In this document: in pieces, positions 3,807 to 45,394 of the stretch
Layout: each line of letters starts with the position of its first letter
Numbering within the stretch: the stretch's first letter is position 1
Program-made: the position numbers and the translations under genes
The notes under the pieces: model-generated
Told to the model about the DNA's origin: nothing
What the model saw: the letters and a program-made list of their open reading frames with translations, nothing else
Database searches by the model: none
DNA from: Stegostoma tigrinum
Taxonomy: Eukaryota
Length of the DNA stretch: 64,000 nt
Reading direction: 5' to 3'
Assembly: GCF_030684315.1 (NCBI RefSeq)
Contig: NC_081360.1
Coordinates: forward strand, 51,159,424 to 51,223,423

Positions 3807-4378
3807 GTAAGTATTTTCAATGTATTCTAACTGCATAATACAAATACGGTATAATACCTTGAAATTTATGACAATTTATTCACAGAAAAAGTTGATAATA
3901 ATTTAAGTTTAACGACAATGACATAGAAAATAGGAGCAGGAATAGGCTATTTGACCCTTAGAGCTAGCTCCACAATTTATCTGATCGTGGTTGATCAATC
4001 CTCAAGTAGTTTACTTATGTAGGGACTACATATACATCTGCTATAGTCTTCTGGAAACTACCTTTAATTTTTCCTAGGTCTAGCTATTCTGGAGTCACTA
4101 ACTACTTCTTGACTGTGGATGGCTCACATGCTTGCTTGGCTCACTTTTCCAGTACTTCCAAGCTAATCTGCTTTCTTTGCTACAAGACTTTGAGTCCTAC
4201 TTCAGGCTTCTCCAATAGCTTTAAACTAGGAGCCCGACACATACTGTTCGCTTCCAAATTTAAACCGATATGAAGGACTGGGTTTTCACTCCTGATTCAG
4301 GTACACAGTGAGAAATTTCTGAAGTTAACATTTCGAGTCCAGTGACCCTTCTGCAAAACTGATTGTAGCTTGGAAAAG

Positions 4379-5859
4379 TGATATTGGGAACTGCAGATGC
4401 TGGAGAATCCAAGATAATAAAATGTGAGGCTGGATGAACACAGCAGGCCAAGCAGCATCTCAGGAGCACAAAAGCTGACATTTCGGGCCTAGACCCTTCA
4501 TCAGAGAGGGGGATGGGGTGAGGGTTCTGGAATAAATAGGGAGAGAGGGGGAGGCGGACCGAAGATGGAGAGAAAAGAAGATAGGTGGAGAGGAGAGTAT
4601 AGGTGGGGAGGTAGGGAGGGGATAGGTCAGTCCAGGGAAGACGGACAGGTCAAGGAGGTGGGATGAGGTTAGTAGGTAGGAGATGGAGGTGCGGCTTGGG
4701 GTGGGAGGAAGGGATGGGTGAGGGGAAGAACAGGTTAGGGAGGCAGAGACATGTTGGACTGGTTTTGGGATGCGGTGGGGGAAGGGGAGATTTTGGAGCT
4801 GGTGAAGTCCACATTGATACCATTGGGCTGCAGGGTTCCCAAGCGGAATATGAGTTGCTGTTTCTGCAACCTTCAGGTGGCATCATTGTGGCACTGCAGG
4901 AGGCCCATGATGGACATGTCATCTAAAGAATGGGAGGGGGAGTGGAAATGGTTTGCGACTGGGAGGTGCAGTTGTTTATAGCGAACCAAGTGGAGGTGTT
5001 CTGCAAAGCAGTCCCCAAGCCTCCGCTTGGTGCCCCCACATCTCCACCCTCACCCCTATCCCAGGCCCCAAGATGACTTTCCATATTAAGCAGAGGTTCA
5101 CCTGCACATCTGCCAATGTGGTATACTGCATCCACTGTACCCGGTGTGGCATCCTCTACATTGGGGAAACCAAGCGGAGGCTTGGGGACTGCTTTGCAGA
5201 ACACCTCTGCTCGGTTCGCAATAAACAACTGCACCTCCCAGTCGCAAACCATTTCCACTCCCCCTCCCATTCTTTAGATGACATGTCCATCTTGGGCCTC
5301 CTGCAGTGCCACACTGATGCCACCCGAAGTTTGCAGGAACAGCAACTCATATTCCACTTGGGAACCCTGCAGCCCAATGGTATCAATGTGGACTTCACCA
5401 GCTTCAAAATCTCCCCTTCCCCCAACTGCATCCCAAAACCAACCCAGTTCATCCCCCCCCACTGCACCACACAACCAGCCCAGCTCTTCCCCTCCACCCA
5501 CTGCATCCCAAAACCAGTCCACCCTGTCTCTGCCTCCCTAACCTGTTCTTCCTCTCACCCATCCCTTCCTCCCACCCCAAGCCACACCTCCATCTCCTAC
5601 CTACTAACCTCATCCCACCTCCTTGACCTGTCCGTCTTCCCTGGACTGACCTATCCCCTCCCTACCTCCCCACTTATACTCTCCTCTCCACCTATCTTCT
5701 TTTCTCTCCATCTTCGGTCCGCCTCCCCCTCTCTCCCTATTTATTCCAGAACCCTCACCCCATCCCCCTCTCTGATGAAGGGTCTAGGCCCGAAACGTCA
5801 GCTTTTGTGCTCCTGAGATGCTGCTGGGCCTGCTGTGTTCATCCAGCCTCACATTTTAT
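4379..5859. mobile_element. Young PLE insertion forming a large inverted repeat (minus arm 4379-5031, plus arm 5031-5859)
   Basis: arms are reverse complements; open GIY-YIG frame in the plus arm; 13-bp TSD tagcttggaaaag at 4366-4378 and 5860-5872. Confidence 0.9.
5772..5799 (+). ncRNA. Hammerhead-ribozyme-like core in PLE terminus
   Basis: CTGATGA, hairpin gggt-ctag-gccc, GAAA, CGTC; PLE termini are known to carry minimal hammerheads; helix I pairing looks weak. Confidence 0.5.
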
Positions 5860-8800
5860 TAGCTTGGAAAAGGTTGGTTTGTATGCTGATGGTAGTGTGG
5901 GGGAGGGGGAGGTGTAATCAATGGGTGGAAATAGAGCCTAGAGAGAGAGAAAAACAGTTGGGCTGACAAAGGAGTATGTAAAGGTCAGCCTGAGAGAATG
6001 AATAGCTGCTAAAGGGGACCATTAGCTGCTGAGAATTAGTTGGTTGTGGTAGCAGCTCATATGATGATAAGACCTGGTGTATGGGAGTTTGGGTAAGGAC
6101 ATTGGGGAAGGTGCTCAGACTTATTTCTGAAGAAGGGTCTAGGCTTGAAACGTCAGCATTACTGCTCCTCTGATGCTGCTTGGCCTGCTGTGTTCATCCA
6201 GCTCTACACCTTGTTATCTCTATTATTGAACTCAATGTTGTGTCCTGAAAGCTACAGAGTCTCCGAGTGGAAAATGAGATATTGCTCTTCCAGCTTGTGT
6301 TCAGTTTTCCTAGAGCACTGCAGCGATCCTGACACAGAGATGTTGACCAGATCTGGGTAGAAGAAGAGTGTCTGCGGGATGGGGAGAGGACTCTTGCCCA
6401 AAGAAATAGGTATGGAGGCGAAGGCTGAGCACAACTTTCTAACACCACTTCATATTACCTCCTCTGCCTCCATGTCTGTGTCTATAGAGAAGAATCCTGT
6501 CTCTGTCCCAAAGACTCCTTCACCCACCCCCAACACTCTCCCTCCATCTGGACCCCTCTGTCTGGCCTTTTACCTGTACTCAACCAGTTCGTTTGAGAAC
6601 TGTCAACGTAAGATTGGTTGCCTGTACCCTCCCCCTTCCCATTCAAAACTGTGTTCCTCTGAATGACTGCATGCAATGCTCTGAGATCCAATCATGTCTT
6701 TGTAATCAACACTGATTATGAGGATAGTGATGCTGTTGCCTGGTGTACTGACCTCTAAGGGCCAGCTCATGGATACATCCTCCTATCCCCCTGGAACATG
6801 ACCCCACCATTGGACACCAGGCTTTTGTGTCACAATGGTCTCATTGCATCTGTTGATCTCACGTCCCCACACTGCCTCCAAGCATTCCCTAAGCCTGCAC
6901 AGCTCACTTCGCCTCCTTCCAAAAACCCACAAACAGGACTGGCCAGGCAGATCCACTGTTTCTGCCTGTTCCTGCCCCACTGAACTCATCTCATCCTATC
7001 TCGATTTACTTTCTCCCCTTGTCCATTCCTTTCCCAATTACATCCTTGATTCCTCTGAAGCTTTACTTCAGTCTCAGAATTTGTGGTTTGTGGGCTCCAG
7101 CCACCTCCTCTTCACAATGGACTTGTAATCCCTTTACATGTCCATTCCCCATCAGGATGGTCTCAGGACTTTCCACTTCTTCCTGGAGAAGAGGCCTGAA
7201 CCATCTCCATCCACCATGACCCTCCCCTCCTCACTTTGAACATCTTTCCCTTTAACTCGCACCACTTACTTTGTGGCAAGGGTGTGATCATGGTACCTGT
7301 ATGGGCCCCAGTTATTCCTATCTCTTTGTGGGGAACATTTCAGTACTGCTCAGGTTGCCATCCACAACTCTTTCTCTGGTACACTGATGATATCATCAGC
7401 ACTGTTTCCCTCTCTCATCCAGAACTGGAAAAATTTATTAATTTCAATTCCAATTTCCACCCTCCTCTCACCTTCACCTCCATCTTTGACTCCTCCCTTC
7501 CCTTCCTCGATATCTCTGCTTCTATTTCTGCTGAGAGGCTGGCAACTATTATCTACTACAACTGACTCTCACATTTACCTTGACTATGCATCCTCAACTA
7601 AGGATCTCCTGCCACCTTGGTTAACAGGACCCTCAGCCGTGTCCAACCTATCTCCTGCACTTTGGTCCTCACCCCCTCTCTTCCCTTCCGCAACAGCTGT
7701 AGGATCCCCTGACCCTCACTTATTAACCCACCAGCATCCACATCCAGAGTATTATTAGTTGCCAATTCTGCCATCTCTAGCAGGATGCCACCAGCGGACA
7801 CACTTCCTCTCGCCACCGTTGCCAGCCTTCTGCAGGCACCCTTCCCTCTGGGACACGTTGCTCCACTTCTCCTCTACTCTCAACATCTCCCCATACCTGC
7901 ACAGCACCTTCCCACGCAAACACAGAAGGTGTTACACCTGCCTAGCTACTTCCTCCATCCTCAATATCCAAGGCCCCAGACACATCTTCTAGGTGAAGCA
8001 GTGGATTACCTGCAATTCATTCAATCTAGTCTGCCATATTCACTGCTCACAATGTGGTCTGCTCCACACTGCAGAGACAAAATGCAGACTTGGAGATGGC
8101 TTTGCAGAGAACCTGTGTTCTGTCCACAAAAATGACCCTGACCTTCCTGTTGCCTGCTTGAATGTTACCCGAGTGTTGTGCTGCCTGCCACTTTAACACA
8201 CCACCATGTGACCTGGCCAACATCTCTGTCTGTGGCCTGTTGCGGTGCTCCTGTGAAGCTCAGCACAAGCTGGAAGAACAACACCTCATTTTCCGTTTTG
8301 GGATACTACAGCCTTGGGGACTCAATATCAAGTTCAATAATTTTTGGGGCTGAGCACCTATTCCTACATCCTTGCCCCAATCCCCATTCACCAGACCCTG
8401 TCATCACATGGGCTGCTATCACAAACAACACATTCTCAGCCATTGATGGCCTCCATTAGCAGCTGTTGATTGCAGGTTGACTTTTACTCATTCCTTTGTC
8501 TGCCCAACTGATTTTCTCTCTCTCTGGGCTCCATCTCCACCTATTGTTTACTCCTCCCCTCTTTCCCCATTCCATCATCAGTGTATATACCAACCTTATT
8601 ATGGCTACAATCGAATTGGAAGAAGGACTCACCGCACTCAAAATATTAACTCTAATTTCGCTCCACAGAAGCTGCCAGACCTGTTAATTTTTCCTGCAAT
8701 TTCTGTTTTTGTTTCTGACTTACAGCATCTGCAGTAGTTTGGGTTTTTTGGAAAAATTCCTGACTCTGCAAAACCCACTGGAATAAATTTAACAGAATAG

Positions 8801-19009: not shown

Positions 19010-22000
19010 TTGATAGGATATGAGCGTTGCTGGCAAGTCCAGAATTTAATGCCCATCCTTAGATGTCCTTGAGAAAGCATTGATAAGCTGGCTTTTGAAT
19101 TCCTTCAGTCATTGTATGTTGACACGGTAGCAGTGCTAATGGGGAGGAGTTCCAGGATTTTAACCCAACAGCAGTGATAGAACAACACTATATATCCATG
19201 TTAAGATTGAAGAGAACCTACAGGCAGAGATGTCCCCCCACCATATGCCTGCTATCCCTTTTCTTGTAAGTGGCAGAGATTTGGGGGTTGGAAGATACTA
19301 CTGAAGATGTCTTGGTAAATTGCTACTGTGCACCTTTAGGTGTACAATGATGGCACTGTGCGCTGCTGGTGGCAGGAGCAAACTTTGGAGATGGTGGTTG
19401 GAATACCATTGTAATGAGTTACTTTGTTCTGGGTGGTGCTGAGCTTCTGTTCTGTTACTGAAGCTACCCTTTCCAGCCAAGTAGGATGTATTTCTTTATA
19501 TACAGGAACTTGTATCTTGTTGACAGTGGACAGATTTGGGTACTGAGAAAGTGAGTTATTTTGTGTAAAGTTCCCAGTCTCCGGCTTGCTGCTGAAGTCA
19601 TTGTATTTCTCAGACTATCCCAGGTTAACTCCAGGCCACTCAGGTTTCTAGTCAAAGGCATCCCCACAATGTTGATGAGTGAATCAGTAATGGCAATCCC
19701 ATTGAATGTCAATGGTGAGATGCTCTATTTCTGAAGGTAGCCATGACCTGCCACTTGTCTGAGACCAGTATTACTTGACACTTAGAAGCACAGGCCTGAA
19801 TATTGTCTCTGTGGAATATGGGCATAGGCTGCCTCAGTATCTGAGGAGTTGAGAATAGTACTAAGGACTGAGAAATCATAAACAAACAATCCCATCTTCT
19901 GCCCTTATGATGATGGAACATCACTGATGAAACACCTGCAAATGTTTGGACTTGGGACATGACCTGAAGGAGGTCCTGTAGACATGGAGCTGAGCTGACC
20001 ACATTTCTGTTAAGTATGACTCCAAGGAGAGTTTCTTCTTGAATTCTTCAATCTTACTAGAGCTCTTTGATGTCACACTCAGCTAAATTGCCATGATGTA
20101 AGGGCAGTAACTATCAGCTTACCTTTGGAATTCTGTTCTTTTTTCCAATGTTTGAAGCAAGACTGTATTAAGGGTTTGAACTGAGTCACTTTGGGAAAAC
20201 CCAACTGAACATCAGTCAGCAAAAAATTGCTACTGTGGTAGCTATACTAGAATAGCTTGGTTAGGGCCTTGGCTAGTTCTGGACCACAAGTTCTCCATAT
20301 TTCAGGGGAGATATTGTTGGAGCCCACAGCCTTTGGATCCAGTGAGTTCAACCTTTCTTAGTATTGAGTGAAGTGAATTGAATCCGCTAAGACCTGGGAA
20401 CATCATTTTGAGGACCTCAGGAAAAGGTTGAGATAGATCAGCCACTGGCACTTTTGGCTGAAGCTGATGGCAAATGCACAACCTTGACTTTGCACTGATG
20501 TTCTGGGCTCTGCAAATGTAGATGGAGCAATGTGTGAGCCCGCCTCCTTCCATCAGTATCCCGTCTCCAGCAGGATTTCTGTGCTGAGCTTTTTTCCTGT
20601 CCACTGAAATTAATTTCACTGTCCTTTCTAGTGTTTGATCAGCCATTTGCTGAAATCTGTTTTCACAGCCGCATCACATTCCTTAGCGACTACCTCTGGA
20701 TCAGACGTCCCCACATGGATTCCAGCTGAAGTTTAATCTTTCGTGCTTTGAATCCACCCAGGATCACGGGTATTTCTGTGATGTTCAGCATTCCGCAGGC
20801 AACTTGCAGGTTCTTGCCACATCTTCACATTCACACTCAGTGCCATGTGGCATCATATGAACGCACTCAACCTCCCTCTCCAACATCATCGCATCAGTCT
20901 GGCTCAGGCTGCACCGTTCCACAGTTCCACTTCATCCTCCAGCTCATTCTTCAGGCTAACCAGAAAGTTTTTTTTTTACTTTTCAGGTATCAAGGCAGAC
21001 AAGATGCAACAACTCAGAGATACCCACGGACTTCTGGAACCTACCTCCCCTACCCTTCCCTCTGACTTCATCCCCTCCCTCTACCCCACCTCCTGTTGGG
21101 TATTCACCATCCCTCCTAACCTTCCACACTCTGATGTTGAACGTTCTGTACTCAGCAAAGGTCTTAGCTTTATCCCTCTGCATCCCCACCTTAATGAATT
21201 TCAGGCACGACATGATGTCTAACTTTACTTCCGCCATCTTTGCCTCCAGGTACTTTTCGTTGGACGAGCATCCTCTCCCCGTTGCACAGACCCCCGCATC
21301 CTATTCCAACACTGTCCCTCCACCTGGAACCTCCCTGTGGCCTTTTACCTGCACTTAATCTGTTCATAGAGAACTGTCAATGTGATATTGGACACCTCAA
21401 TTTCTCTGCCCCCTGTCACCTAACGCACCCTATCTCCCTCCGAACTGACTGCTCTCCAAGCAGTTAGATTCAACCCTGACTTTGTTGTTAAGCCTGCTGT
21501 TAAGGGTGGTGCTGTTGTAGTCTGGTGTACTGACTTCTACATTGCAGAGGCTGAGTGCCAACGCTCAGATACGTCCTCCTATCTTCCCCTGGACCATGAA
21601 CCACCATGGTACATCAGGCCATTGTATCTACTACGGTAACTGACCTCATTTAATCTGATGATCCACCCCACTGCCTCCAAGCTGATAGTCCTCCAGCCCC
21701 ACACAACTCACTTCTACCTCCTGAAAACCCACAAATAGGACTGTCTGGACAGACCCATTTTTCCAGCCTGCTCCTGCTCCACAAAACTCATCTCTTCCTA
21801 CCTTGACTCAGTATGTTCTCTCCTGGTCCAGTCCTGCCCACATACATCTGTGATTTCTCTGACACTTTACGCCAGTTTCAGAATTTCCAGTTTGCAGGCT
21901 CTAGCCGCCTCCTGTTTACCATGGACATGCAATCCCTGCACATGACCATTCCCCACCAGGAGGGTCTTAGGGCAGTCTGCTTCTTCCTGGAGCAAAGACC

Positions 22001-24140
22001 TGAACTGTCCCCTCTCAACATGACCCTCCTCCATTTGGCCAAGGCCGTCCTCACCCTTAACAACTTCTCTTTTAACTGCTTTTGTTTTCTTCAGGTCAGA
22101 GGGCTACCCATGGGTACCCACATGGGCCTCAGTTATATTTGTCTCTTTACAGGGTGTGTGGAACATTCCTTGTTCCAGTTCTATTCTGGTTCCAACCCAC
22201 AACTCTTTCTCCAATGTATCAATGATATCATTGGTGCTGCTTCCGTCTCTCAGCCAGAATTGAAAAAAGTTCACCGATTTCACTTCCACTTTCCACCCTG
22301 CCCTCACTTTCACCTGCCCAACTCTATTTTCTCCCTTCCCTTCCTCAACATCTCTATTTTCATTTCTGAGGATGGACTGGCCGCTAATATCCACTATAAA
22401 CCCACTGACTCTCACAGCTACCTGAACTGTACATCCTCACATCCTGCTTTCTGTAAAGACTCCATTCCATTCTCCCACTTTCTCTGCCTCCATTGCGTAT
22501 GTTCTCATAAGGCCAACTTTGACCAGGGAGCCTCCGAAATGCCCACCTCCTTCTTCAACTGAAGATTCCCTAGTACCGTTGTTGACAGGGCCCTCAACTG
22601 GGTTCGATCCATCTCCTGCACTTCTGCCCTCACCTTCTCTCTTCCCTCCCGCAACAGTGAAAGGGGTCCCCTTGTCCTTACCTGCCATCCCACCAGAATC
22701 CACGTTCAGAAGATCATCAGCAACCATTTCTGCCACCTTCAGTGACATGCCACCACCAGACATGTATCCCCCTCCCCTCCCCTCCCTTGTTCACCTTCCG
22801 CAGGAATTGTTCCCCTGGGAAACCCTGGCCCACTTTTCCTTCATTCCCAACACCTGCCCCACTGGCCCACGCATCTCCCCCGCAACTGCGGAAAGTATAA
22901 CAACTGCCCATTTACCTCCTCCCTGCCCAGACTGACTCATCGGTTGTGAAATTGCTTTGCTCTGTCTCTAACGTACTGCTTTCATTGTTCAATGTACATG
23001 CAATTCTTTGTTGTAGCCTCACCAGACATTTTAGATATATCTGGGCTTCTTCTTGCATGTTCATCGAACCATGATTGATCCTTTGGTTTGTTATTGACAA
23101 TATAATGAATGATATGCTGGGCCATGAGATTACAGATTAAGGTTGAATGCAACACAGTTGTTGATGGTCTTTTGAAAGCTTATGTGTGCCCAGTTTTGTG
23201 GTACAAGTGCATTCTGAATCTATCCTGATTAGCAATTATGCCACAAACACAACAGAGGCTAGCCTTAATGTAAAGACATGACTCTTTCTCTGCAAGGACT
23301 GTACAGCAGTCACTCCTACCAGTATTGTCTTGGACAGATGCGTCGGTGGCATGCAGATTTGTGAGGGCAAAATCAAATGGGTTTTTCCATTTTGTCGGTT
23401 CTCTCATCACTTACAGCAGGTTCAATCTGGCAGATATGTCCTTCAAGACACAGCCAACTTTGTTAATACCTGTGCTACTAAGTCCCTCTTGTTAATGGAA
23501 TTTAAAGTCACCTACCCAGATTACATACTATGCTCTTATTATCTCATTGCTAGTCCCAAGTGGTCTTCAACGTAGAGGTATTATTATTTTCCATTTGGTG
23601 GAGGTGAGTAAGTGATAGGTTTCCTTACCCATATTTGACCTTAACCATGAGTATTGAGAACTGGAATGTAAGGTATGAATGCTCAGACCACCCAATAAGA
23701 GACTATAAGACCATAAGATGTAGGAGCAGAATTAGGCCATTTGGCCGATTGTATTTGCTCCACCATTCGATTGTGACAAATATTTTTGTTTCTTAATCTC
23801 ATTCCCCTGCCTTCTTCCTGCAACCTTTGATCCCCTTACTAATCAAGAATCTATCTATCTCTGTCTCAGTTACACTTCTGTGGCAATGAGTTCCATAGGA
23901 TCACCACCCTCTGGCTGAAGGAATTCTTCCTCATCCAGTTTTAAAGGGTTCTCCCTTCACTCTCAACCATATGCCCCAGAAGCATCATATTTCTCATTTA
24001 TGCTTATGGTTTGTCCGACCAATTGTACCCAGAGATTACAATGGAAGAGTCTGGGACATTGACAGAAAGTTAAGACTCTGTAAGTGTGATAATGTCAGGT
24101 AGTTGTTTGACTAGTCTATGACACAGCTCTCCCAATTTTG
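19010..24140 (-). mobile_element. Long decayed family-B LINE, interrupted by a PLE (20650-22935) and a CR1 3' end (23700-23975)
   Basis: same tail as other family-B copies near 19020-19060; RT-like peptides 19464-20002; EN-like MREPTKWKNPFDFALTNL at 23180-23410. Confidence 0.6.
20650..22935 (+). mobile_element. Penelope-like element, decayed RT region
   Basis: VLSKGLSFIP, ORF 21813..22562 (LFTMDMQSL...GLPMGTHMG...KPTDSHSYL). Confidence 0.85.
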
Positions 24141-24659
24141 CCAGATGTTATATTCAATAAAGCCGTTGGCTAAAGAATAGAATTGGAGACAATCTTTACA
24201 CATTTTTGTATTAATTTAGAATTGCATCCCAGAGGGAAGTGCCTTCTAACCAAATAACCAGAATTTCAGCCTGTGTCTATTTATCAGCATTTTAATCCAT
24301 CACCAATTAGTATCCATCATCTCCATACAATTAAAGCATAATTAATTGACAATTGACAATAGTAAAATAATGGTTATGGCACAATTGATTGATTAAAATT
24401 TAATATACCATGGTACAGAGTAAAATTTGCACTGGTATAACCACAATTAATCTGATTCTCTTTACGTTTATAGACAATATTGCATATCTAGAAAGGCTTG
24501 TGTTAGAGTTGTTAATATCCAGCTTTGTAATACTGTTCATATACAACAAAAAATAGTGGGTTTAAAGACAAGGTGCTCTTTCACCTTTGTAAAATACTAA
24601 TCACAGCCACGCTATTTTGTATTTCTAACTCATAAGGTTTTGCTTATGATCACTTGTAG

Positions 24660-24813
24660 ATTGAATACCAAACTGAGGGGATTGATGCTACACTTGTTGA
24701 ATATCAGGATAATCGGCCAATACTGGATATGTTTCTTCAGAAGCCAATGGGCTTATTGTCTCTGCTGGACGAAGAAAGCCGTTTCCCTAAAGCATCTGAC
24801 CAGACGCTTGTAG
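24660..24813 (+). CDS. MYO3B: MYO3B exon (IEYQTEGID...[35 protein letters not shown])
   Basis: tgtAG / GTaag; 154 nt, phase 0 to 1; LLDEES motif. Confidence 0.96.
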
Positions 24814-25319
24814 GTAAGAATAACAGCCAGACAATTTATATTTATACAGAACCCTTCACACCAAAAATGTTCCAATATACGGCACAAACCTTATTATTAA
24901 GGTGCCTGCCACATCAGGAAGGAATAGATTGAAGGATGACCAAAAAAACAGGCTAAAGGAATAGAGTTCCATGAGGTTTCTAAAGGTTGAAAATATTGTG
25001 CATATACACAAATATTTAGGGAAGATCGTCAAAAGGACATAATTTATGCAGCTGAAGGCTCTGCCCCCAGTATTTACATCTTTATTGTTTATATTAGCAA
25101 CTCTGAAAAGATGCCATTTATTGCCTATGTTTAATTGGCTGCCGTCTTAACTACAGTAGGCCTTACAGTGATGATAATTCTACCCCCATGAAGGTTTTAG
25201 GTAGGGATTTTAGGGCTTTGACCTGGTAATAGTGAAGCAAAGGAGATATGTGCCTGAGTTAGAATCCCAAGATATTGCTGCTGTTATCTTTGTTGGTAGA
25301 GGTTATGGGACTGGAATAA

Positions 25320-28140
25320 GAGACAAAAAAAAACTGCAGATACTGGAATCCAAGGTAGACAAAAGGGAGACTGGAACAACACAGCAGGCCAGGCAGCATC
25401 TGGAGGAAAGGAGCAGACAATGTTTTGGACTTTACCCTTCTTCAGGACTGGATGTGGGGTAGGAAAAGGTGCAGATAAAAGTGGCAGGGAGGGGTGGATG
25501 CAGAATGGTGGCGATAGGTGCACACTTGTGGGAGGTATGACCAGGTTAGTCAGTGGAGGGATGTATCCAGTTGGTGGCTGGAAGGGAGGGTCAGAAGGTG
25601 GAATGGAAGGTAGGAGTTGGGGCTGTAAGGGGAGGTGGGGAATGGGTGGCAAGGTTATTTGAAATTGGAGAACTCAAAGTTGAGTCCTCCAGGCTGTAGG
25701 CTGCCCATGCAGAAGATAAGGTGCAGTTCTTCAAATTTGCACTCTGAGTTGCTGTGACACTGGAGGAGGCCAAGGATGGATATGTTGGCAGGGGAATGGG
25801 GCGGGGAGTTGATATAGGTGGTAATCGGGAGGTTAGGTTGATGGTCATGGGCCAGGTGAAGGTGCTGGACGAAATGGTCAGCTAGTCTCCCTTTGGTCTC
25901 ACTGACATAGAGGAGACCACATTGGGAGCACGGGATGTAGTAGACTAAGTTGGAGGAGGTGCAAATGAAGCTCTGCCTCACTTGGAAGTACTGTTTAGGA
26001 CCTTGGATGGAGGTGGGGGAGGTGGTGTTTGGGCAGGTGTTGCATCTTTTACGGTTACAAGGGAAGGTACCAGGTGGGTTATAGTGGTTGGTGGGGAGTG
26101 TGATGTGACCTAAGGAGTTGTGAAGGGAATGGCCCTTGTGGAAGGCAGAGAGGGGTGGGGAGTGAAAGATATCCTGGTTGGTGGGGCCAAATTAGAGTTG
26201 GATGAAGTGTTTGAGGATGATACATTGGATGTGGAGGCTGGTGGAGTGGAAAATGAGGATAAGGGGACCCTATTTTTATTATGTTTGGAAGTGGGGTGGT
26301 GGATAAGGGCTGTGGAGCAGGGAATGGAAGAGCACAGTGGAGGGCTGTCTGAATGACAGAATAGGGGGAAAGAGTGTTGTTTGAAAAAGCCAGACGTCCA
26401 GGATACTTGGGAGTCGAATGTTTCCTTGTCTGAGCCGATGAAACAGAGACAGAGGAGTTGGGAAAACAGGATGGAGTTTTTGCAGGATACAGGGTTGGGG
26501 AAGATGTAGTCTAGGTAACTGTGGGAGTGTTTGCGTTTATAGTAAATGTTGGTACATATGCTGTCACTAGAAATGGAAATGTAGAGGTCAAGACAGGGCA
26601 GGGGAGTGTCTGAGATAGACCAAGTGAATTTCAGGGCAGAGTGGAAGTTGTTAACAAAGCCGATGAACTGCTCCAGTTCAGCCTGGGTGCAGGATGCAGC
26701 ACTGATACAGTCATCGATATAACGGTAGAAGAGTTGGGGAACAGTCCCAGTGTATGTACTTAAGAGGGACTGTTTGACATAACCGATAAACAGGCAGTCA
26801 TAGCTAAAGCCAATCTGAGTGCCATGGCAACTCACCACGTTTGGGGAATGTCGGAAGAATTGAAGGAGAAGTTATTGAGGGTGAGGACTAGCTTGATGAA
26901 GCGGAGCTGAGTTTTGGTTGGGAGGTGACTGGATGGGTCTGGTGTAGAGGAAATACTGAGGGCCTGTGGGCTATCCTTGTGGGGTATAGATGTGTATTGG
27001 CATTCAACGTCCATAGTAAAGATGAAGCACTGGGGCCCAGAGAACTTGAAGTTGCCAAAGAGATAGAGAGCTTGGTTTGTGTCCTGGATGTAGCTGGGGA
27101 GTTCTTGAACCAAGGGGGAGAAAATGGAGTCGAGTTAGGAAGAGATGAGTTTGGTCGGGCTGGAGCAAGTGGAGAAATTAGTTTGGCCGGGGTGATTGAG
27201 CTTGTGGAAATGGGGGAGCAGGTAGAATCAGGCAGTGCAGGGCTGGCGTTGTGTAAGGTTGGAGGCAGTGGAGGGGAGGTCATCGGAAGCGATGAGGTCA
27301 TGTACAGTGTGGGAAACGGTGGCTTGATGGGTCATGGTCAAGGAGGAGGTAGGAGAGTTGGCATTTGGCCCCTGCAATACAGAGGTCTGTCCTATAGACT
27401 ACCACTGCCCTACATTTGTCGGTGGGTTTGATAGCGAAGCTGGGATTGGTGCAGAGAGAGTGCAGCGCTGTATGTTCGGAGGGGGAAGAGGATGGAGTGG
27501 GTGAGGGGTGTGGAGAAATCGAGGCAGTCAATATTGCAGTTAGCAATGAAGAGGTGCAGTGCGGGTAAGAGGCTGGCAGAGAGTGTCCAAGAGGCGGAGG
27601 AAGGTTGGAGGTGGGAGAAGGGGTACCCAGAGAGTGGTTGGGAATTTTTACCAAAGAAGAAGGCTTGGAAGTAAAGGTGGTAGAAGAAGAGCTACACGTC
27701 AAGGTGGGAATGGAACTCGTTGAGGTGGGGTGGAGGGGCACAAGTGTGAGCACTTTACAGAGGACAGACTGTTTGGCTTTAGAGAGTTCAAGGTCCGGGG
27801 AAATGGTGAATATGCATCAAGGTTCATGTGTGGAGTTTTGGGAGCTCTTGAGGAGGCTGAAGAAGGGGAGGAGGGATGAGCAACAGCATGTGATGGTTGA
27901 GGGTTGGACATGGTGTGATTGGCGTGAGTGATTGTGAGAGGGAAAGGAAGGTGGGAGAGTAGTGGACTGTGGAATAGGATGGAGGATTGGATTGGGGAAG
28001 GGATGTAGGAGAGGTGAGGTAGAGAGGAGGGAGGAGAGGTGGAGGCGTAGGGTGTATTGTGGGGGTGGACAGATGAAGAGGGAAAGGTGTACTCCCTAGC
28101 TCAAATATGTTTGGTGTTTTGCAACAGGGCAACGTAGGGT
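25320..28140 (-). mobile_element. Penelope-like element (RT, GIY-YIG, 3' terminus)
   Basis: minus ORFs with YRYIDDC, FIFTMDV, VYYIPCSQCGLLYVSETK; terminus near 25320-25445. Confidence 0.85.
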
Positions 28141-36702: not shown

Positions 36703-37233
36703 AAATTTAAAAAAATCTTTGTTTAACAAGAGACCTTAATTTGAACCTAGGCCAGTAGAAACTGGTTCCCCCTAAATTGCCAGAAATACGTAGGCACCTT
36801 GACAGTGCAATTCAAATCAAGCCAGCCCATCAAAATATTCTGGATCTCCTGCTGGTGCCATAGGTGCGTGACGTTTTGGGGATAGAGTAGGGGCTGCATG
36901 ATGGTGGATACCACCTACTTGATGCACTCTAAGTAATAATCTCTCCAACTCAGATAATACGTATTATCTTGCATTAGTGTTGTCACTTTGAAGTAACCAA
37001 AGTTTCTTAAACTTCAAAACTTAATCTGAAAATTGAGTACAGCAGCAAATATACTATGGAAATTTCACAGGAATTGTTGGTCTTTAATGGCCTTCACTAA
37101 TTTACTTCAATATGAAGAAAATCACGTTTTTGAGGGCCGCTAGCCACCCAATTGCTGTGCAGCTCTCCTTGTCTCAGCAGTGTCAATGTGAGTGAGTACG
37201 GTGCAGATCAGACACCATAACCAGGAACAAGGT

Positions 37234-37788
37234 TGCTTTGGATCTCAGCGTGTATCAGATTCAGGTAAATATAATTAAGAGAAGACTCCACCGCAGTAAT
37301 TTGCTGAAATATGCATTTTTATTAAGTAACAATGATGATTATAGAGATAATAATAAATGGAAGAGAAAAGGAAAAAAAGCAAGTCTCATGCACTTCTAGA
37401 AAAAACAAGTCTCATGCCTTCCTACCCATTGGAGGTCCCTCGATTGACGGCTGGTCTGGAGGCTAAAGATGTTCCTGGCACTGTTCAAGATTGCGAACTG
37501 AAGAGAAGTCCCAAGCTTTGCAACAAAACTCTCTCTCTCTCTCTCATATAGTGTGGCAAACAGCCAGCATAAAGAAAGCAGATACAGAAAACAAACCATA
37601 GCTGTGGAAAAACCAGTTGCAAGTGCCACCTTTGGCCCATAAAGGAATGTTAACAAGACTCATCCAAGGTCGTGCAGCTTGTTGAGAATAATCAACAATT
37701 TTAGCTGTTCAGCCCATCCTATATAATTTATCTTCCCATGCAGCTGTCAAAAATCATTAACTTTTAGCTGTTTAGCCCATCCTATACA
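37234..37788 (-). repeat. 3' LTR of the provirus
   Basis: TG...CA ends; minus-strand TATA-like motif at about 37546-37550 and AATAAA at 37318-37323; collinear with 44121-44711; preceded by PPT-like gggttgaaa. Confidence 0.82.
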
Positions 37789-37880
37789 TTTCAACCCAAT
37801 TATATCAGACACCGCGTGTTGCAATTGCAAATGCAGATGCAAATCAGCGACCGCCATGCAAGAAGAGTATGTTTCCTGCT

Positions 37881-40500
37881 CTACAAGATTAAAACTGCAA
37901 TGAAAATAATTAGCATTAATACAAAGAATACAACAATAGGATGTCTCATCAAATTAATGATCACAGTGGCCTTTGGGGACTAACGCTTAAATACATATCT
38001 CACTCCTGATGTACGGTCAAGGCTGTGATGGAACCAGCAAATTGTGCCACCTGACTCAGGCAACCAGAATATTTTCTATGTTTTGTTTGTCAGATAATCA
38101 ATTGACATTATTTGCTCTAAAATTCAGTATGTTCCAGATTCAGGTCCCTTAATTTGTGTTTTTTTTCATCCTCCAGTTCCCTATCCACAGATCATCTCAC
38201 CCAATAACAGTAAAATATCATACATGTACTCAAAATTTCTCCAACTTTCTTCATCAGTATCTGTCTTGAGGATATTTCTCCAATATGTTTCCCTCCTTGC
38301 CAATTGTATGAATGATTGTACCATTGAGTAGTAGCTACCTACAAATGCAGGTACTCCTTTTGAGCTACAATACACATGGCAAACATGCATCATACAAATG
38401 CTCAAGATGGGGTATCTGCATGTCATCGGACGGGTCCTTTCACTCAATCTATTCTCGATGTTTTAAAGTCAGTTTCTGAATGGATTTATTTATCTCTCCA
38501 CATATGGTCCTGATGCCTTGGGTACTGGTTTGATTACCAAATCAGTTCTCTTAAAAGGAAAGACAAGGACACAAATATTACCAAGAGAAAGCTATTAGTT
38601 TTCTGCTCTCATCTAAACCTCCACTTCACTACTGTAACATTTTAACCTGAATTGCTGCTTCTACCCATTTTTTTGTCTTCTGCCGCCCGTCTTCATCTTT
38701 AATTACTTTATCTCATCCAATTTTGCAACTTAACTATTACCACCATATCTAATTCTAGAGACCTGTAGAGATTTGTAGTCCGTGAAGCATAATCTAATAA
38801 TATTTTAAAACAGAAGTCAAACATTTCTGTTTGATTCAGGCACAATATACTTTGTTTGGTCTTTTTCAAAGATGACCCACTTGTTTAAAAGTTACTTGAT
38901 GACTCATTCTGGATACTTGACATATCTCTATGTAAATTTGTTCACATTCAATATTCTGTTTTCTCCTTTTAAGTCACTGACAATTTTTAAGTATTGAGCT
39001 GTTGAGATTTTGCGCATGCACTTTATCATTTCCCAGAATCCATTTAAATTTCCAGGTAACTATCCTGTTTAAATAGTTTAGAATACCAGGGCATGTGGAT
39101 CTTAACATAGTTTTTGTCATGATATGCTTAAGTGTACCCAATCTCAGTGGTTTTGAGATTCCTGACACTCAATGCAATTAACATTTCCACGGTACTTCCC
39201 CAACACTGACGTGTGTTGTTGATGAAGAAATTGATGGATTGAGGGTGCCTCATCCATCACTGCATTGCGAAGTTGAAATTCTGCAAATGGGTTCAGCATC
39301 AGGCTCTCCAGTTTCTGAAAAAACAACCTCCATCCATTCCATATCAAGCAGAATGGGTGAATTAATATTAATTGCCTACGGATTCAAAAAGGGGTGGGGT
39401 GTAAACTACTGCATATAATTATATCATCAGTCTCTCCTCCTTCTTGAAGGAAGGAAAAGCCTAGCCCATTGTTAAATATGCTTTTCCTAAACTCCTAGGA
39501 CACTGAGTTGCAATTTCAACATTCCAATTTTCCTATCACTTGGATATTAATAATAAATCAATCTTATCATCCAGAATAAAAGATTCACTCATGTTAAAAT
39601 GGGGAGGGAGGGGAGGCTATGGCCTCATGGTATTATCGCTGGACTATTAACCCGGAGACCAAGATATTGTTCTGGGGACCCATGTTTGAATCCTGCCATG
39701 GCAGATGGTGGAATTTGAATTCAATAAAATATCTAGAATTAAGAGTCTAACAATGACTGTGAATCCATTGTCAATTGTTGGAAAAACCCATCTGGTACAC
39801 TAATGTCATTTAGGGAAGGAAACTGCCATCCTTACTTGGTCTGGCCTGTATGTGACTCCAGAACCACAGCATTGTGGTTGACTCTTAACTGCCTGCTGGG
39901 CAATTAGGAGTGGGCAACAAAATGCTGCCTGGTCAGTGATGCCCTCATCCTGTGAATGAATAAAGGGGAAAAAAAACAATATTTGGAAGTTCACCCTGGC
40001 TAGAAAATGAAATTCCAAACATGATAATTTCTGGGATTAAAATTTACCCAAGTCCAAACACACCACGGAGCTAATTCCAAAAGGTAAATTTTTACCAAGC
40101 TTTATGAACCAAATTTTTGAATCAACGTTTCGCAGATGTTTGCTTTACGCAACCATTGATGGTTTCTTAAAAGGACATTACATTAACTGCACATGGTCCA
40201 CACAGATACGGGCACACAACACACTTTCAAATCACCACATATTCTCAACATGCAAACTCAAACTTCAAAGTATCCCCAGATCTCAAGCTCTAGGAACCAA
40301 AAGACACACATTGTACTAGATGACATTTAGCAACCAACAAACAAAGGTGCATTCAAACCAGACCACAAAAGTTAACACTATTCTTGAAAATATTCTGAAT
40401 GACGTTTGAAGGTCATTGTGCAATTATTTCTGACATTGCTCATTAATAATTGTATGGGCTTGAGCAGCTTGATTTTTGTACAGAATTTGGTCTTCCATTG
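37881..40500 (-). pseudogene. env-like pseudogene with stops and frameshifts
   Basis: hydrophobic N-terminal stretch at about 40325-40385, basic sites RRRR (39433-39444) and KRRKQ (38956-38970), C-terminal SPKATVIINLMRHPIVVFFVLMLIIFIAVLIL. Confidence 0.62.
39601..39976 (+). mobile_element. tRNA-derived SINE nested in the env
   Basis: decayed A/B boxes, core shared with 35710 and 63305, gggcaattagg...tgaatgaataaa tail. Confidence 0.78.
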
Positions 40501-41362
40501 ATTTGCACTGTGTTTCTCAGAATGGAGACCTTTCTCAAGTGAGCTGCATCAGCATCAGATTGAATCACTTCTGCTAATGCAACTCATGTCTCTTCTATAC
40601 TCGCAATAGATTTGGTGGTGAATTTCTCAGTTTTTGAAAAATCTAGAGGAGGAGTAGGAGGAGGAGGAGCACAAGATGCAGTAGCTGGTTGTCCTGTTTG
40701 AGAATATTCCCTTACATCCTGTAGTTCTTGATACTGCGGATGTTGTCTGTTTAGTTTTATAATTCCACTGTGTGCTCCAATTGATGCCAAAGGTGCACAG
40801 TATTCATTCTCTGGTGCAATAAATGAATCTTTTTTAAGGTTACCCTTTATCACCGATTCTTGGATTTTTCTAAGCCGTTCTTTGACTTGCCCTGATTGGA
40901 TAGCTTCTGTTGGAGAACTTGTAAGCACTCATCTTTCTGTACAGGATTCTGAGCAATGGGTTTGAATTTCTTGACAGGCCCAAACATGTTGGTATTGGGT
41001 TTGATATTGAAGCAATCAGTGTGAAAGGAAGGTTAATGTTCTGACTGTGTCACAAATGCTGTTTCTGTAACTGGGGAGGATACAGTGGATATTGTAGGCA
41101 GATTTGAGGCATATAAATTATGTGAGGTGCAATTTCCTTGTTTCATAGCTGTAACATGACTTTTAATTGAATCTGAAAATAAAAGATGAAATTGGATTGA
41201 TTGCAAAAGTCACAGTTGTGTTAACTGACTGATCATGTGGAGCACAGGAAATCAAGACATTTTTCATAAAAGGTGACTGCATTTTACTTTGCGGAATCTG
41301 CCTATCTGCAGTGGGACACTGCTTTTCAGTAGGAAATGCAAACACATTTTTAACAAATGAAT

Positions 41363-41453
41363 GAGAAGGGCCTCGGCCCGAAACATCAGCTTTTCTGCTC
41401 CTATGATGCTGCTTGGCCTGCTGTGTTCATCCAGCTCTACACCTTGTTATCTC
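41363..41453 (+). mobile_element. PLE terminus fragment nested in the provirus
   Basis: gaagggcctcggcccgaaacatcag core; 14-bp TSD tttaacRaatgaat at 41349-41362 and 41454-41467. Confidence 0.8.
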
Positions 41454-41559
41454 TTTAACGAATGAATTCTGATTTGGAACAGATTGAGCTTGTATATGTA
41501 TTATCATGTTTTCAACACTTCCTGTGTTGGAGTGGAATGCAAACCCTGTCTTCAGTGGG

Positions 41560-44004
41560 TTTTCCTTTCCTCCATCCACAACTGTTTTGATCTTCCTTAC
41601 TTCCTTACACTTCGGAGAACATTGCATTCTCCACATAGTGTAGATGGCACTTGTAGGTATTCCCGGTGTCTTAACTCCTGCTTTCACTAATGCCATGAAC
41701 ATTTCCCTTCTGGTTATCTTTTCTTTCACCTTCGAGCCCACCCCATCTCCAACTTGTTGTCCGCACAGGAGGCTGCTGAGTAAGATAAGGGCCCATGTGT
41801 TAGAGGCAATGTGCTAGCAATGCATTGAAGATTGGCTGTCTGGCAGAAAGCAGAGAATGGGGATAAAAGGGTCTTTCTCAGGATGGCAGCTAGTGACAAA
41901 TGGTGTTCCGCAAGGGTTGGTTTTGGGATCACAACTTTTCACTTTATATTTTAATGATCCAGATGAAGGAACTGAGTGCATTCTGGCTAAGTTTACAGAT
42001 GATGCAAAGATAGGTAGATGGACAGGTAGTATTAAGGAGGCAGGAAGGCTGCACGATTGGGCTAGGTTAGAAGAGTGGGCAAAGAAGTAACAGATGGAGT
42101 ACAATGTGGGGAAAGTGTGAGGTCATGCACTGTGGTAAGAAGAATAGAAACATGGACCATTTTCTAAATGGGAAGAAAATTCAGAAGTCTGAAGTGCAAA
42201 GAGACTTGGGAGTTCTAGTCCAGGATTCTCTCAAGATAAACTTGCAGGTTGAGTTAGGAAGGCAAATGCAACATTGCCATTTATTTTGGGAGGACTTGAA
42301 TATAAAAGCAGGGATATAGTTCTTAGGTTCTATAGGCTCAGATCAGTCCATGTTTGGAGTATTGAGTGCAGTTTTGGGCCCCATATCTCAAGAAAGATGT
42401 ACTGGCCCTGGAGCGGGTTCAGTGGGAGTTCACGAGAATGGTGTCAGGAATGAAAAGCTTAACATGCAAGGAATGTTTAAAGACTCTGGGTCTAAACTCA
42501 ATGAAGTTTAGAAGGATTGGGTGGGAGGGATCTAATTGAAATATTGAATATTGAATGGCCTGGTCAGAGTGGACATTGGAAGATGTTTCCATTAGCAGGA
42601 GAGACTAGTACACTTGCACACAGCTTTAGAGTAAAGGGAGGACGTTCTGGAATGGAGATAAGGAGAAACTTCTTCAGCCAGAGAGTGGTTAATCTGTGGA
42701 ACTGACTGCTATGGAAGGCTGTGGAGGTCAGGTCATTGAGTGTATTTAAGATGGAGATAGATAAGTTGTTGATTGTCATGGGGATTAAGTGTTACATGGA
42801 GAAAGCGGGAGAATGGGGTTGAGAAACTTATCAACCATGATTGAATGATAGAGCAGAACTAATGGGCTGAATGGCCTAATTTCTGCTCTTATGTCTTGTG
42901 GTCTTATGGTCTTATTGCTTGCTTGGGTGGACCTTACTCTATGGTTACCAGCCCCTACATCTTCTAACTGATTAACAGCAAACATACCTGTCCCACTGCC
43001 TGCTCCCTGCCTGGCCCTAATAATGCTAACAAGGCACCTCTTATCCATCCTGGACTCTGAAACAGTGGAGAATACGCACTGGCATGTGTAGCCAAATCCC
43101 TGAAACATTTTATTTTCTTCTGGTATGCTGTCCCATTTTTCAACATCACATTCCCAAGCTACTGGGGAAGGGTCCTTGTTTCCTACTCTAGCATCAGTGC
43201 ATTCCATAATGATCCAGTTTGCCCTGTGTTTCTAAAGACACTATTCACATGTGGATCAACATGTAGTGTTCCCAGATTCCCTTGCTCTGTTGTACTCAGC
43301 GTAATAAGGGCAGCACCCTGGACCCATGACAGCATCAGCCAAGAGGGCAAGGGCTCGCCTGACTTCTTAAAGTGTGACCACAAATCCTGCAATTTGGACA
43401 AAGAGTAATCTATCTCTATTGTTGAATTGTTTGGATTCTGTCCTCCTACCTGTTTTGCCTTATTTGTTATTACTATGCGTTGTGCTAGTACTCCGTTCTT
43501 TGAGGATAGCTCCAGAGGTGGAGCATCTCCTTTCCCGTCTGTCAAGTCAGACTCTGAAGCAGATGAATATCAAATGTCTCCATCCCAATGGCTGGGTTCC
43601 CATTGTGAAGTTAATAACACGCACACTTTGGGTCAACTTTCCAATTGCGCCGTTTTGCTCTCTTTCTTCCGCTGTAAAATCACCAGATGGCATACTGCCT
43701 GGTTCTGTTTCTCCTGTGCCTTCTCAGCTCTCTCCTGTGCTGTCTTAACTCCTTCTGTTCGGGTAATGTTACGCTGCTGCTTGTTTTTGGCCTGGCACTC
43801 TTCCAATTTCCTACATGTAGAACACAAAACTGTTAACAATACCCATCCCATTTGTGGTACACTGTCCTTACTTTTGTGGAAGGCTGCCTCCTGCCAGCAT
43901 TCATGTACAGTAGCCTCTGTGAATAACCGACCTTTCTCTCTTTTTCTGGTTGTAATCATCCCCCATTCTTGTGGGGGTCCTAACTGTGCTAGCAAGTTAG
44001 CCAA
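41560..44004 (-). pseudogene. gag-like pseudogene (ERV-L type), split by a CR1 insertion
   Basis: ORF pieces 43633-44004, 43183-43545, 42964-43149 and 41427-41741 match recalled ERV-L Gag motifs in the right order. Confidence 0.72.
41760..42915 (+). mobile_element. CR1 LINE 3' portion nested in the gag
   Basis: PHRRLLSKIRAH, GVPQGLVLG, KFTDDAK, RRNFFSQRVVNLWN, (ggtctta) tail. Confidence 0.88.
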
Positions 44005-44098
44005 AAACCCGAATTCTGAGTCTGCTGCGTTTCATCCTGGAATATGGAAAATCTCCAGAACATCAGGTTGCCTTTCCTTCTCTTAAATATTTTCCTAA

Positions 44099-44116
44099 AT
44101 CTGATTCTCATCACCG
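44099..44116 (-). promoter_or_regulatory. Putative primer-binding site, tRNA-Ser(GCT)-like
   Basis: minus strand CGGTGATGAGAATCAGAT versus expected TGGCGACGAGGATGGGAT (12/18), 4 nt from the LTR edge. Confidence 0.45.
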
Positions 44117-44120
44117 AAAA

Positions 44121-44711
44121 TATCTTGGATCATAGCATGTATCCGAACAGTTCTTTTCAGATTTGGATAAATATAACTAAGAGAAGGTTCAACCACATTA
44201 ATTTGCTCAGACATGAAAGTTTATTAAGTAATAATAGTGATTACAATGGTAATAATAAATATTGTAGTGGTAATAATAAATGGAAGAGAAAAGGAAAAAA
44301 ATAAACAAGTCTCACACCCTTCTGGAAAAAGTACAGAATCTCATGCCCTCCAGCCCATCAGGGGCCCCTTAATTGATCGTTGGTCGAGAGGCTGAGGTAG
44401 TTTCTGGCACTGTTCACAATTCCAAGCCGAAGAAAAATCCCGTGCTTTGGAACAAAATTCTGTCTCGTATATAGTGTGACAAATTGCCAGCACAAAGAAT
44501 GCAGACAGAGAAAACAAAACATAGCTACAAAGAAACAAGTTGCAGGTGCCATCTTCAGCCCATATGGGAATGTTAACAAGACTCATCCACAGTGATGCAG
44601 CTTGTCGAGTATAATCGACAATTTTAGCCATTCAACCCATCCTATACAATCAATCTCCTCATACAGCTGTCAAATATCATTAAATTTTAGCCTTCAGCCC
44701 TTCCTATTCCA
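44121..44711 (-). repeat. 5' LTR of the provirus
   Basis: direct repeat of 37234-37788; TATATA at 44468-44473; minus-strand AATAAA at 44220-44225. Confidence 0.82.
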
Positions 44712-45305
44712 AGGTGAGACCAAGACCTTGTCTGAGTCAGGCTGACCGTACAGAGGAGGAGGAGTGCACATGAAAATGATGGGGTAGGGTAAAGGAAAAG
44801 ATGTGCTTGGGTTAAAGCCCAGAAGAGGGGTGGCATCTCTGATAGGAACAGGGTAGCCAAACGTGAGACATCCTATCCCTGAACTTATGGCCATGCGCCA
44901 GCTCTTATTGGGCAACTTATGCACTTAGTATGTTCTTTTCATTGTTTCTTGGGAGTTGTAAAATTGAGACAGTCATTATTGTCACGCCTGATCCTACAAA
45001 GCAACTTTGAAGTTACTCGTTAACTATGTTGTTCTTTCTGGTGAGCATTGGGCTGGTTAAAATTAATCTTGAAAATCGCAGATTCATGAATTAAGGTTAA
45101 GCTTCAATACATACATTGTTTCTGTTTTAATCTTCATAACTGGAAATCCTTATTCAACATTATTTGTGACGTTCAATATGGAGAACTGCATGTAGAATTT
45201 CTGCTTTTCCATTTATGCATGTGCTCACCTTAACCCTCAAGTGGACGCACAAAATAAAATGAGCATTATATTAAAACATGCTGTCGACTTCCTCTCATAT
45301 TACAG

Positions 45306-45394
45306 ATAAATTTGAGGACAACCTACGATCAGGCTACTTTTGGAGACCAAAGGGTGTGGAGCTATGTTTTGGAATCAAACATTATGCTGGCAAG
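45306..45394 (+). CDS. MYO3B: MYO3B exon ([30 protein letters not shown])
   Basis: tacAG / GTataa; 89 nt, phase 1 to 0; HYAG motif; [12 protein letters not shown] favours MYO3B over MYO3A. Confidence 0.96.

Follow-up and report, generated by a model that had tools for sequence, protein, structure and literature searches.

Provirus structure and host site

An old, decayed LTR provirus lies on the minus strand, antisense in an intron of a shark myosin gene, within the 64-kb window (the whole stretch of DNA that was analysed). Its 3' LTR (37234..37788, minus strand, 555 bp) and 5' LTR (44121..44711, minus strand, 591 bp) are identical at 441 of 547 bases in the LTR-LTR alignment (80.6%; K2P 0.23), have ends of the TG...CA type and both carry AATAAA on the minus strand (37318 and 44220), which bears out the two collinear direct repeats reported in the preliminary description. 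TATA-like sites were spotted by eye. The same alignment places the target site duplication AGGT at 37230..37233 (left copy) and 44712..44715 (right copy); with the LTR ends fixed in this way, the duplication previously given as 4-5 bp is 4 bp long, and 5 bp is reached only if the last base of the LTR is counted. The PPT-like site does stand next to the 3' LTR (37789..37800, minus strand), but its purine tract is weak, as its 8 purines in 12 bases are equalled or exceeded by 28% of the 12-mers in the window. The PBS (44103..44120, minus strand) is a candidate by position only. No tRNA genes were found in the 64-kb window, and Rfam gave only a sub-threshold lncRNA match there.

On the plus strand, a host myosin-head exon lies upstream of the insertion (24660..24815; PF00063, E=5e-12) and a myosin exon lies downstream (45302..45394), the latter recognised by a motif match and giving no Pfam match alone. 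PF00063 was found in two of the three host exons tested, which supports the myosin part of the earlier placement in a MYO3B intron; the gene is presumed to be MYO3B rather than MYO3A. The present copy encodes no intact protein today. An absolute age was discarded, since the LTR distance combined with the rate assumed in the part of PMC4422223 used here gives about 520 million years, which is implausibly old, and the distance is therefore read as a relative age only.

Following its insertion, the provirus itself took CR1, SINE and short-repeat hits. These comprise the 3' fragment of a CR1-type LINE (41771..42917, plus strand; PF00078 (RVT_1), E=1e-5) with a depth of 10^4-10^5, a SINE (39595..39972) with two further copies in the window, and a 105-bp repeat end (41363..41467) flanked by a 14-bp duplication. 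The SINE is missing from other copies, being skipped in 2-6 of their contigs per run; the joints 39594/39595-39973 were seen in 2-8 contigs of a run. The nested inserts named earlier are thus recovered, the third of them as a short repeat that we take to be Penelope-like. Without the inserts, the internal sequence measures 4702 bp, close to the 4.7 kb estimated before, of which 1025 bp is derived from COBL.

Coding remnants and absence of pol

The env-like region (37801..39594, minus strand) is heavily broken and has the highest depth of the family. Within it lies a segment predicted to be the membrane anchor of a now decayed env-like gene (37884..37940, minus strand; KD 3.42). In hydrophobicity it exceeds every other 19-mer of the 64-kb window, read in six frames, and none of 300 shuffles matched it. 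The residual open frames were equalled in 15 of 300 shuffles, and stop density is at background. Env homologues were found neither by Pfam nor in the PDB (nothing in 3/3 frames); in large libraries, searched with one frame, the word-indexed search gave 0 of 4357 candidates and phmmer gave no env match. The env previously assigned here is putative, by likeness; it has a predicted anchor and residual frames, and a homologue was returned by none of the searches.

The gag-like sequence, whose identity as gag is our assumption, falls into a broken region (42918..44031, minus strand), 60% identical to the whale shark model XP_020392837.2, and a C-terminal part (41576..41770, minus strand) within an ORF (41427-41813) that forms one open frame with the start of the COBL piece. 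The open-frame signal of the broken region was reached by none of 300 shuffles, and the first codons in the 5' LTR agree at 9/9 residues with the beginning of that model. This whale shark LTR and gag copy sits at a different gene, SDCCAG8, and was the sole homologue found for the gag-like region, nothing having been obtained with Pfam, PDB, Atlas or fold comparison. For the whale shark gag part, Atlas returned coiled-coil look-alikes below 0.9 and then no usable match, and AlphaFold, run on the gag part with a two-row alignment, gave a pLDDT of 39. The provirus family accounts for the chimeric whale shark gene model.

The reported absence of protease, RT and integrase was confirmed: none of these families, nor RNase H, was found by Pfam at E<=1 in the 18 of 18 frames outside the CR1, and the sole match over 21 frames was the RT of the nested CR1. 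YxDD, D[TS]G and CCHC motifs were absent from all three minus frames. A gag without a zinc knuckle (CCHC) is a mark of class III-like ERVs, but the gag examined here has decayed and is truncated at its end.

With regard to class, the element may be class III (ERV-L/ERV-S-like) by likeness, while the 5-bp duplication that is typical, though not strictly so, of class III-like ERVs is replaced here by one of 4 bp. ERV class rests on pol according to PMC4299795, whose Table 1 gives a 5-bp duplication as typical of ERV3 and ERV4.

Sequence in the pol position

As judged from protein matches and exon junctions, the pol position holds spliced sequence from the 3' part of the host's cordon-bleu (COBL), an actin-assembly gene. 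The main feature of the locus was overlooked in the earlier reading, which had pol simply deleted in the manner of MaLRs; instead, roughly 1.0 kb within the 4.7 kb reads as spliced host COBL coding sequence (40443..41575, minus strand, with the stop at 40443-40445). The piece corresponds to the last ~370 codons, including the lysine-rich patch together with the full set of three actin-binding WH2 motifs, and is broken in the present copy by two stops plus frame changes. The nested 105-bp repeat end also lies inside it. Two other candidates for the middle ORF, an accessory enzyme of the virus and a decayed protease or RT, were rejected once it was identified as COBL.

In a phmmer search of 1.84 billion proteins, 26 of 27 matches cover the COBL stretch (the 27th is the SINE), and those whose names were looked up were all cordon-bleu. 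All eight matches in the protein search of the COBL stretch were shark COBL, the best being Hemiscyllium/Chiloscyllium (E=4e-75), and identity to bamboo and epaulette shark COBL is 60-78% (31/52, 63/81 and 106/155 per part for Hemiscyllium). In the tree, the piece groups with hemiscylliid COBL with support values of 83/88 and 90/95, below the starred level. Pfam gave no match on the decayed WH2 motifs. Isoform skips and read-throughs place COBL exon ends behind the second and behind the third WH2 motif, and both junctions (near 40743 and 40533) are crossed without an intron in the provirus.

The cargo lies between the two LTRs of one element having a target duplication. It runs in the sense of the gag-like ORF and shares its reading frame, the chance of being in frame being 1 in 3, and no pol family or motif occurs on either side of it, indicating that the internal ORFs were partly replaced and not interrupted. 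Below the COBL stop, the stretch 39973..40442 (minus strand) contains at least a short COBL 3' UTR, followed by high-depth sequence common to the env side. An alternative-frame COBL match continues past the stop, depth climbs just below 40404, and the COBL 3' UTR seems to have been cut short in the provirus, given this depth step near 40400. No A-run of >=7 was present within 1.7 kb below the stop, old poly(A) tails being prone to decay. The longest direct repeat flanking the piece is 7 bp, matched in 178 of 200 shuffles; old duplications decay as well.

Family size and origin of the chimera

Family depth was obtained from contigs of two shark species (organisms A and B) in four runs. The COBL piece has a depth of about 25-30 times the single-copy level in 4/4 runs, a summed contig depth and not a copy number, and the gag/COBL depth ratio is 0.95-1.5. 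At the 13 COBL-piece sites listed, 3-32 contigs per run have another letter. A contig ~82% alike crosses both COBL junctions without an intron in both organism B samples, and a contig of organism A that is 88% alike and may be the orthologue crosses one. Among the matches listed (32 of ~498,000 pieces; 15 of 3257 joints), no non-self contig bridges gag-COBL or COBL-env, except for one of organism A, 93% alike, that bridges gag-COBL and is probably the orthologue. Depth falls to single copy at 41665, which is 90 bp gag-ward of the gag-COBL junction. Segmental duplication as the source of the COBL copies was ruled out because the unique flank is single-copy by depth. Metagenome and viral contigs contained no relatives of the element. 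Taken with the whale shark copy at SDCCAG8, the tens-fold depth in two species upholds the earlier suggestion of a pol-less, non-autonomous, multi-copy shark family; the provirus belongs to such a family, and the COBL piece has likely been spread to tens of genomic sites.

Depth on the env side exceeds that of gag 2.8-4.4-fold, or 3-4-fold when set against gag/COBL, from which we infer that other subfamilies exist. Such subfamilies, together with the missing pol signal, would suit a MaLR-like gag and env family that arose through simple loss of pol. This explanation is highly improbable, being contradicted for the present copy by the 1 kb of host COBL in the gap, and with gag and COBL so similar in depth, few gag copies lacking COBL can be expected within 80% identity.

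The many COBL variants at gag-like depth and the intronless state of some non-self contigs make it probable, in our judgement, that COBL mRNA was captured by template switching and that a helper with its own pol then spread the defective chimera over tens of loci. Reverse transcriptase would have switched onto co-packaged COBL mRNA and back, in what would be one capture event, and the helper would have copied the chimera in a carpet-shark ancestor, the other COBL variants presumably residing inside proviruses. The pattern fits LTR-mediated retroposition as outlined in the parts of PMC5131818 used here. The env-side excess in depth is left unexplained by the capture account unless further subfamilies are assumed.

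A LINE-made processed pseudogene of COBL might instead have landed once in a pol-deleted provirus, the other COBL-like contigs being unrelated retrocopies. The CR1, SINE and Penelope-like inserts show that the provirus accepts later insertions, the piece is 5'-truncated, as is frequent in LINE retrocopies, and in other copies COBL is only presumed to be linked to the provirus. We nevertheless regard such a landing as unlikely, since the piece is without poly(A), its flanking duplication is not above chance and its 3' UTR seems cut short; moreover, pol is missing at exactly the COBL position, and tens of retrocopies over one kilobase at gag depth would be a coincidence.

A slightly less likely history is that a retrocopy, made by a LINE or by 3' read-through from a provirus inside COBL, entered an active element, with pol deleted separately and the composite then amplified. 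Multi-copy COBL is accounted for equally well in this way, and read-through capture is a known route (described in part of PMC4299795), but two events are required, poly(A) and duplication are again wanting, and a switch onto mature mRNA agrees with a piece that starts inside the large exon and takes in the last one. The in-frame fusion of Gag with the working end of COBL could conceivably have been selected as a Gag-tethered actin nucleator aiding budding or cell-to-cell movement, a role that we propose with considerable doubt.

Germ-line retroviral gene captures are few, and those amplified later are fewer. Our literature search found neither a retroviral gene capture in cartilaginous fish nor one whose cargo is an actin nucleator. 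The family, with tens of old copies spread over two or more species, makes selection versus hitchhiking of the captured module directly testable. Shark genomes hold many COBL-like pseudo-copies, which calls for caution.

Comparison with known systems

Mammalian MaLRs, as generally understood, are LTR elements that likewise lack pol, are non-autonomous and contain sequence derived from gag. Their internal part is a gag-derived ORF only, without env or pol, whereas the shark element has a captured host gene (1 kb of COBL), an env-like tail and a 4-bp duplication. Acutely transforming retroviruses carry gag-oncogene fusions in which the host mRNA piece costs a viral gene and makes the virus dependent on a helper. 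The layout in frame with gag and the host mRNA cargo are shared with the shark element; its cargo, however, is an actin nucleator and severing module and no known oncogene, and the element is a germ-line fossil known from sequence alone. Of such viral captures, v-kit and RSV src are mentioned in the part of PMC4299795 used here.

The crocodilian CrocERV31 (nectin3) and CrocERV29 (KIT-ligand), as described in that part of PMC4299795, are likewise non-class I/II ERVs with an ORF derived from host mRNA, and they too occur as several copies and are shared by more than one species. Their cargo replaces env or sits between pol and env, whereas COBL replaces pol in the shark element, and they have 6-9 copies with intact ORFs under purifying selection, whereas the shark element is decayed and seemingly in tens of copies. 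The shark cargo also differs from that of the CrocERVs in being partial, a C-terminal actin-binding module that shares its frame with a gag-like ORF.

In LTR-mediated retrocopies, such as FAM8A1 in a human ERV and Bs1 of maize, a partial spliced mRNA likewise replaces internal ORFs, both LTRs are kept and the cargo is without poly(A) or duplication; the model foresees further rounds of copying (parts of PMC5131818). The shark element is far older and multi-copy by comparison, and sharks are not among the taxa in those parts of PMC5131818.

Other endogenous retroviral elements of cartilaginous fish, namely CmiERV I-III (PMC4422223, in part) and ERV-Spuma.0-Sca (PMC10699275, in part), are pol-bearing and were found by pol screens according to the portions of these sources used here. 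Such pol-based screens, the source of shark ERV finds, are blind to a pol-less, COBL-carrying element such as the one described in this study.

Structure of the provirus and its insertion site

The element at 37234-44711 is a decayed provirus, placed on the minus strand because AATAAA is present on that strand of both LTRs (37234-37788, 555 bp; 44121-44711, 591 bp), as the preliminary description had noted. Its two collinear direct repeats aligned over their whole length and agreed at 441 of 547 aligned positions (K2P 0.23); the LTR-LTR alignment set TG...CA-type termini that leave AGGT outside both ends. The proposed duplication of 4-5 bp therefore stands in its 4-bp form, since the 5-bp version counts the last base of the LTR, and the PPT-like site was no better than chance. 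The provirus is antisense to a host myosin gene, which we take to be MYO3B, with myosin exons on either side (PF00063 matched in two of three exons tested; myosin motifs were also present).

Three later inserts were found: a CR1-type piece (PF00078), a SINE bypassed by 2-8 contigs per run that derive from other copies (among the joints listed), and the 105-bp end of a repeat, associated with a 14-bp duplication. Their removal leaves 4702 bp, in line with the 4.7 kb estimated before. Elsewhere in the window, many fragments at 1556-8350 and 21800-28100 have RT- and GIY-YIG-like translations and are presumably Penelope-like, these labels being our assumption; inverted pairs at 4408-5868 are up to 97% alike.

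The two LTRs differ from each other (0.23) about three times as much as this copy differs (0.07) from its apparent orthologue in organism A, one of two shark species compared, in which a contig 93% alike covers 41452-41720 with 18 differences in 268 bases (among the matches listed). This likeness suggests an insertion common to two species. We give no absolute date, since the rate in the accessible part of PMC4422223, applied to the LTR divergence, yields an implausible 520 million years.

A probably captured stretch of COBL in place of pol

No pol family was matched in 18 of 18 non-CR1 frames (Pfam), and RT, protease and zinc-knuckle motifs were absent from the three minus frames, in agreement with the earlier failure to see protease, RT or integrase motifs. 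That absence had been read as a simple MaLR-like loss of pol, which we regard as very improbable, because the pol gap is filled by a stretch of cordon-bleu (COBL) that was missed. One minus-strand frame, searched by phmmer against 1.84 billion proteins, gave 27 matches, 26 on 40.4-41.3 kb and one on the SINE. A domain scan of 12 of them found the Cobl domain in nine and WH2 in 11, the full-length matches checked by name were all cordon-bleu (6/6), and a second search returned only shark COBL proteins (8/8), the best from Hemiscyllium and Chiloscyllium.

Beginning at about 41575 and ending with the COBL stop codon (40443-40445), the COBL piece matches Hemiscyllium COBL frame by frame at 31/52, 63/81 and 106/155 residues, and contains both the lysine-rich patch and the full set of three WH2 motifs. 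Two stops interrupt the window copy, which also shifts frame near 41.18 and 40.92 kb and has a brief patch out of frame near 40.74 kb. At the 105-bp insert site (41349-41467), about 24 codons of shark COBL are missing, the loss being in frame. According to the available text of PMC4626065, a COBL fragment with the lysine-rich patch and WH2 motifs is active in both nucleation and severing of actin, and in cells it compensates in part for the loss of COBL.

Exon points near 40743 and 40533 were located from other records: a stingray isoform omits exactly the stretch between the ends of the second and third WH2, an elephant shark record ends at the first point, the second is where a bamboo shark isoform and a gar record diverge, and one further record covers only the exon between them. 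Both points are crossed in the window without an intron, and a third junction presumably lies near 40872. Judged by its sequence, the COBL piece is derived from mRNA. A one-off LINE retrocopy of COBL is unlikely; no A-run was found near the 3' end of the piece, and the longest flanking direct repeat is 7 bp, a length reached by 178 of 200 shuffles.

In trees made separately for two pieces, the COBL piece groups with hemiscylliid COBL (support 83/88 and 90/95, neither starred). Five residues (about 41110-41125) are kept in the piece and in basking shark COBL and are absent from three hemiscylliid COBLs, so the capture would predate or lie outside the hemiscylliid crown; on these characters, the putative source is a carpet shark outside or before that crown.

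The COBL piece has the same sense as the element, and its first part shares a stop-free frame with the preceding gag-like stretch (ORF 41427-41813), for which chance is 1 in 3; that a gag-COBL fusion was made and selected is doubtful. We consider it quite likely that reverse transcriptase switched template onto COBL mRNA and back, with subsequent copying in trans. The enzyme would have left the element RNA near the end of gag for a co-packaged COBL mRNA and returned a little way past the COBL stop, so that pro-pol was replaced, and the chimera, retaining LTRs and packaging signals, would have been copied in trans, we infer with a helper. Template-switch capture is the model set out in the accessible text of PMC5131818.

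Other copies and relatives

Contigs of four runs (two from organism B, the second shark species, and two from organism A) were aligned to 36925-44124 at 80% likeness; organism B holds about 70% of the words and organism A about 10%. Depth on the unique flank was 4-24; relative to single copy, it was 25-30x (mean) in the COBL bins, 25-42x in gag and 107-163x on the env side, where summed contig depth is no copy number and contig counts agree with multiple copies. Intronless COBL is multi-copy: no fewer than 13 sites in the COBL piece have a different base in 3-32 contigs per run, as against the one or two expected from the host gene. In both organism B samples, a contig about 82% alike covers 40433-40835 and crosses both junctions; in organism A, one 88% alike, possibly the orthologue, covers 40593-40906 (both among the matches listed).

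Two-step insertion with pol loss before spread, which like the preferred template switch is a route to a multi-copy element, is quite improbable. Linkage of the other COBL variants to a provirus is what we infer. SINEs dominate the 32 pieces and 15 joints listed, among which no contig from another copy joins gag to COBL or COBL to env; depth drops to single copy at 41665, counting against family linkage, and within the COBL piece only a fraction of the depth shows the indels by which copies differ.

The env side (37885-39564, 40045-40400) is 2.8-4.4x deeper than gag in all four runs. This excess suggests further subfamilies that, at 80% identity or more, have the 3' half in common with the present copy and lack its 5' half. 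Such subfamilies may be the helper, derivatives reduced to env, or elements bearing a different cargo.

A whale shark gene model (XP_020392837.2, RefSeq 'SDCCAG8 homolog') opens with residues that match the LTR (9/9), continues with about 240 residues of the gag-like frame, at 60% identity, and then passes into SDCCAG8 sequence. As the model matches both gag and LTR, it represents a relative at another locus in another species, and is either an annotation chimera or an LTR-driven exon.

Gag, env and class

The gag-like open-frame signal is real (0/300 shuffles reach it), and the region had no match in Pfam, PDB or Atlas, nor did a predicted fold (pLDDT 39) identify it. We take its resemblance to ERV-L/ERV-S gag as a lead only. 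A 225-codon stop-free plus-strand frame opposite gag, at 43409-44086, is probably an antisense shadow of the gag frame.

For the env-like region, no homologue was found in Pfam, PDB, or phmmer and word-indexed searches of one env frame, and stop density is at background level. In favour of env, its residual open frames (15/300 shuffles) are as strong as in the COBL piece (32/300), and of all 19-mers in the six frames of the window, the most hydrophobic is on the element strand just before the 3' LTR (KD 3.42; 0/300 shuffles).

The class III assignment of the preliminary description is best kept as putative membership, the element working like a class III-type ERV; its 4-bp duplication differs from the typical 5 bp of that class, and class assignment needs pol, according to the available part of PMC4299795.

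Comparison with known gene captures

In the literature searched, mostly outside subscription papers, titles and abstracts of the papers listed gave no COBL capture by a retrovirus, and nothing was found on ERV capture of WH2/actin genes or on a retrocopy or ERV capture of this sort in sharks. Gene capture by ERVs is itself known, including FAM8A1 and others (accessible text of PMC5131818) and, in the available part of PMC4299795, two crocodilian cases, KIT-ligand (9 copies) and nectin3 replacing env (6 insertions). Whereas the crocodilian nectin3-ERV carries its cargo in place of env, the shark element carries COBL in place of pro-pol.
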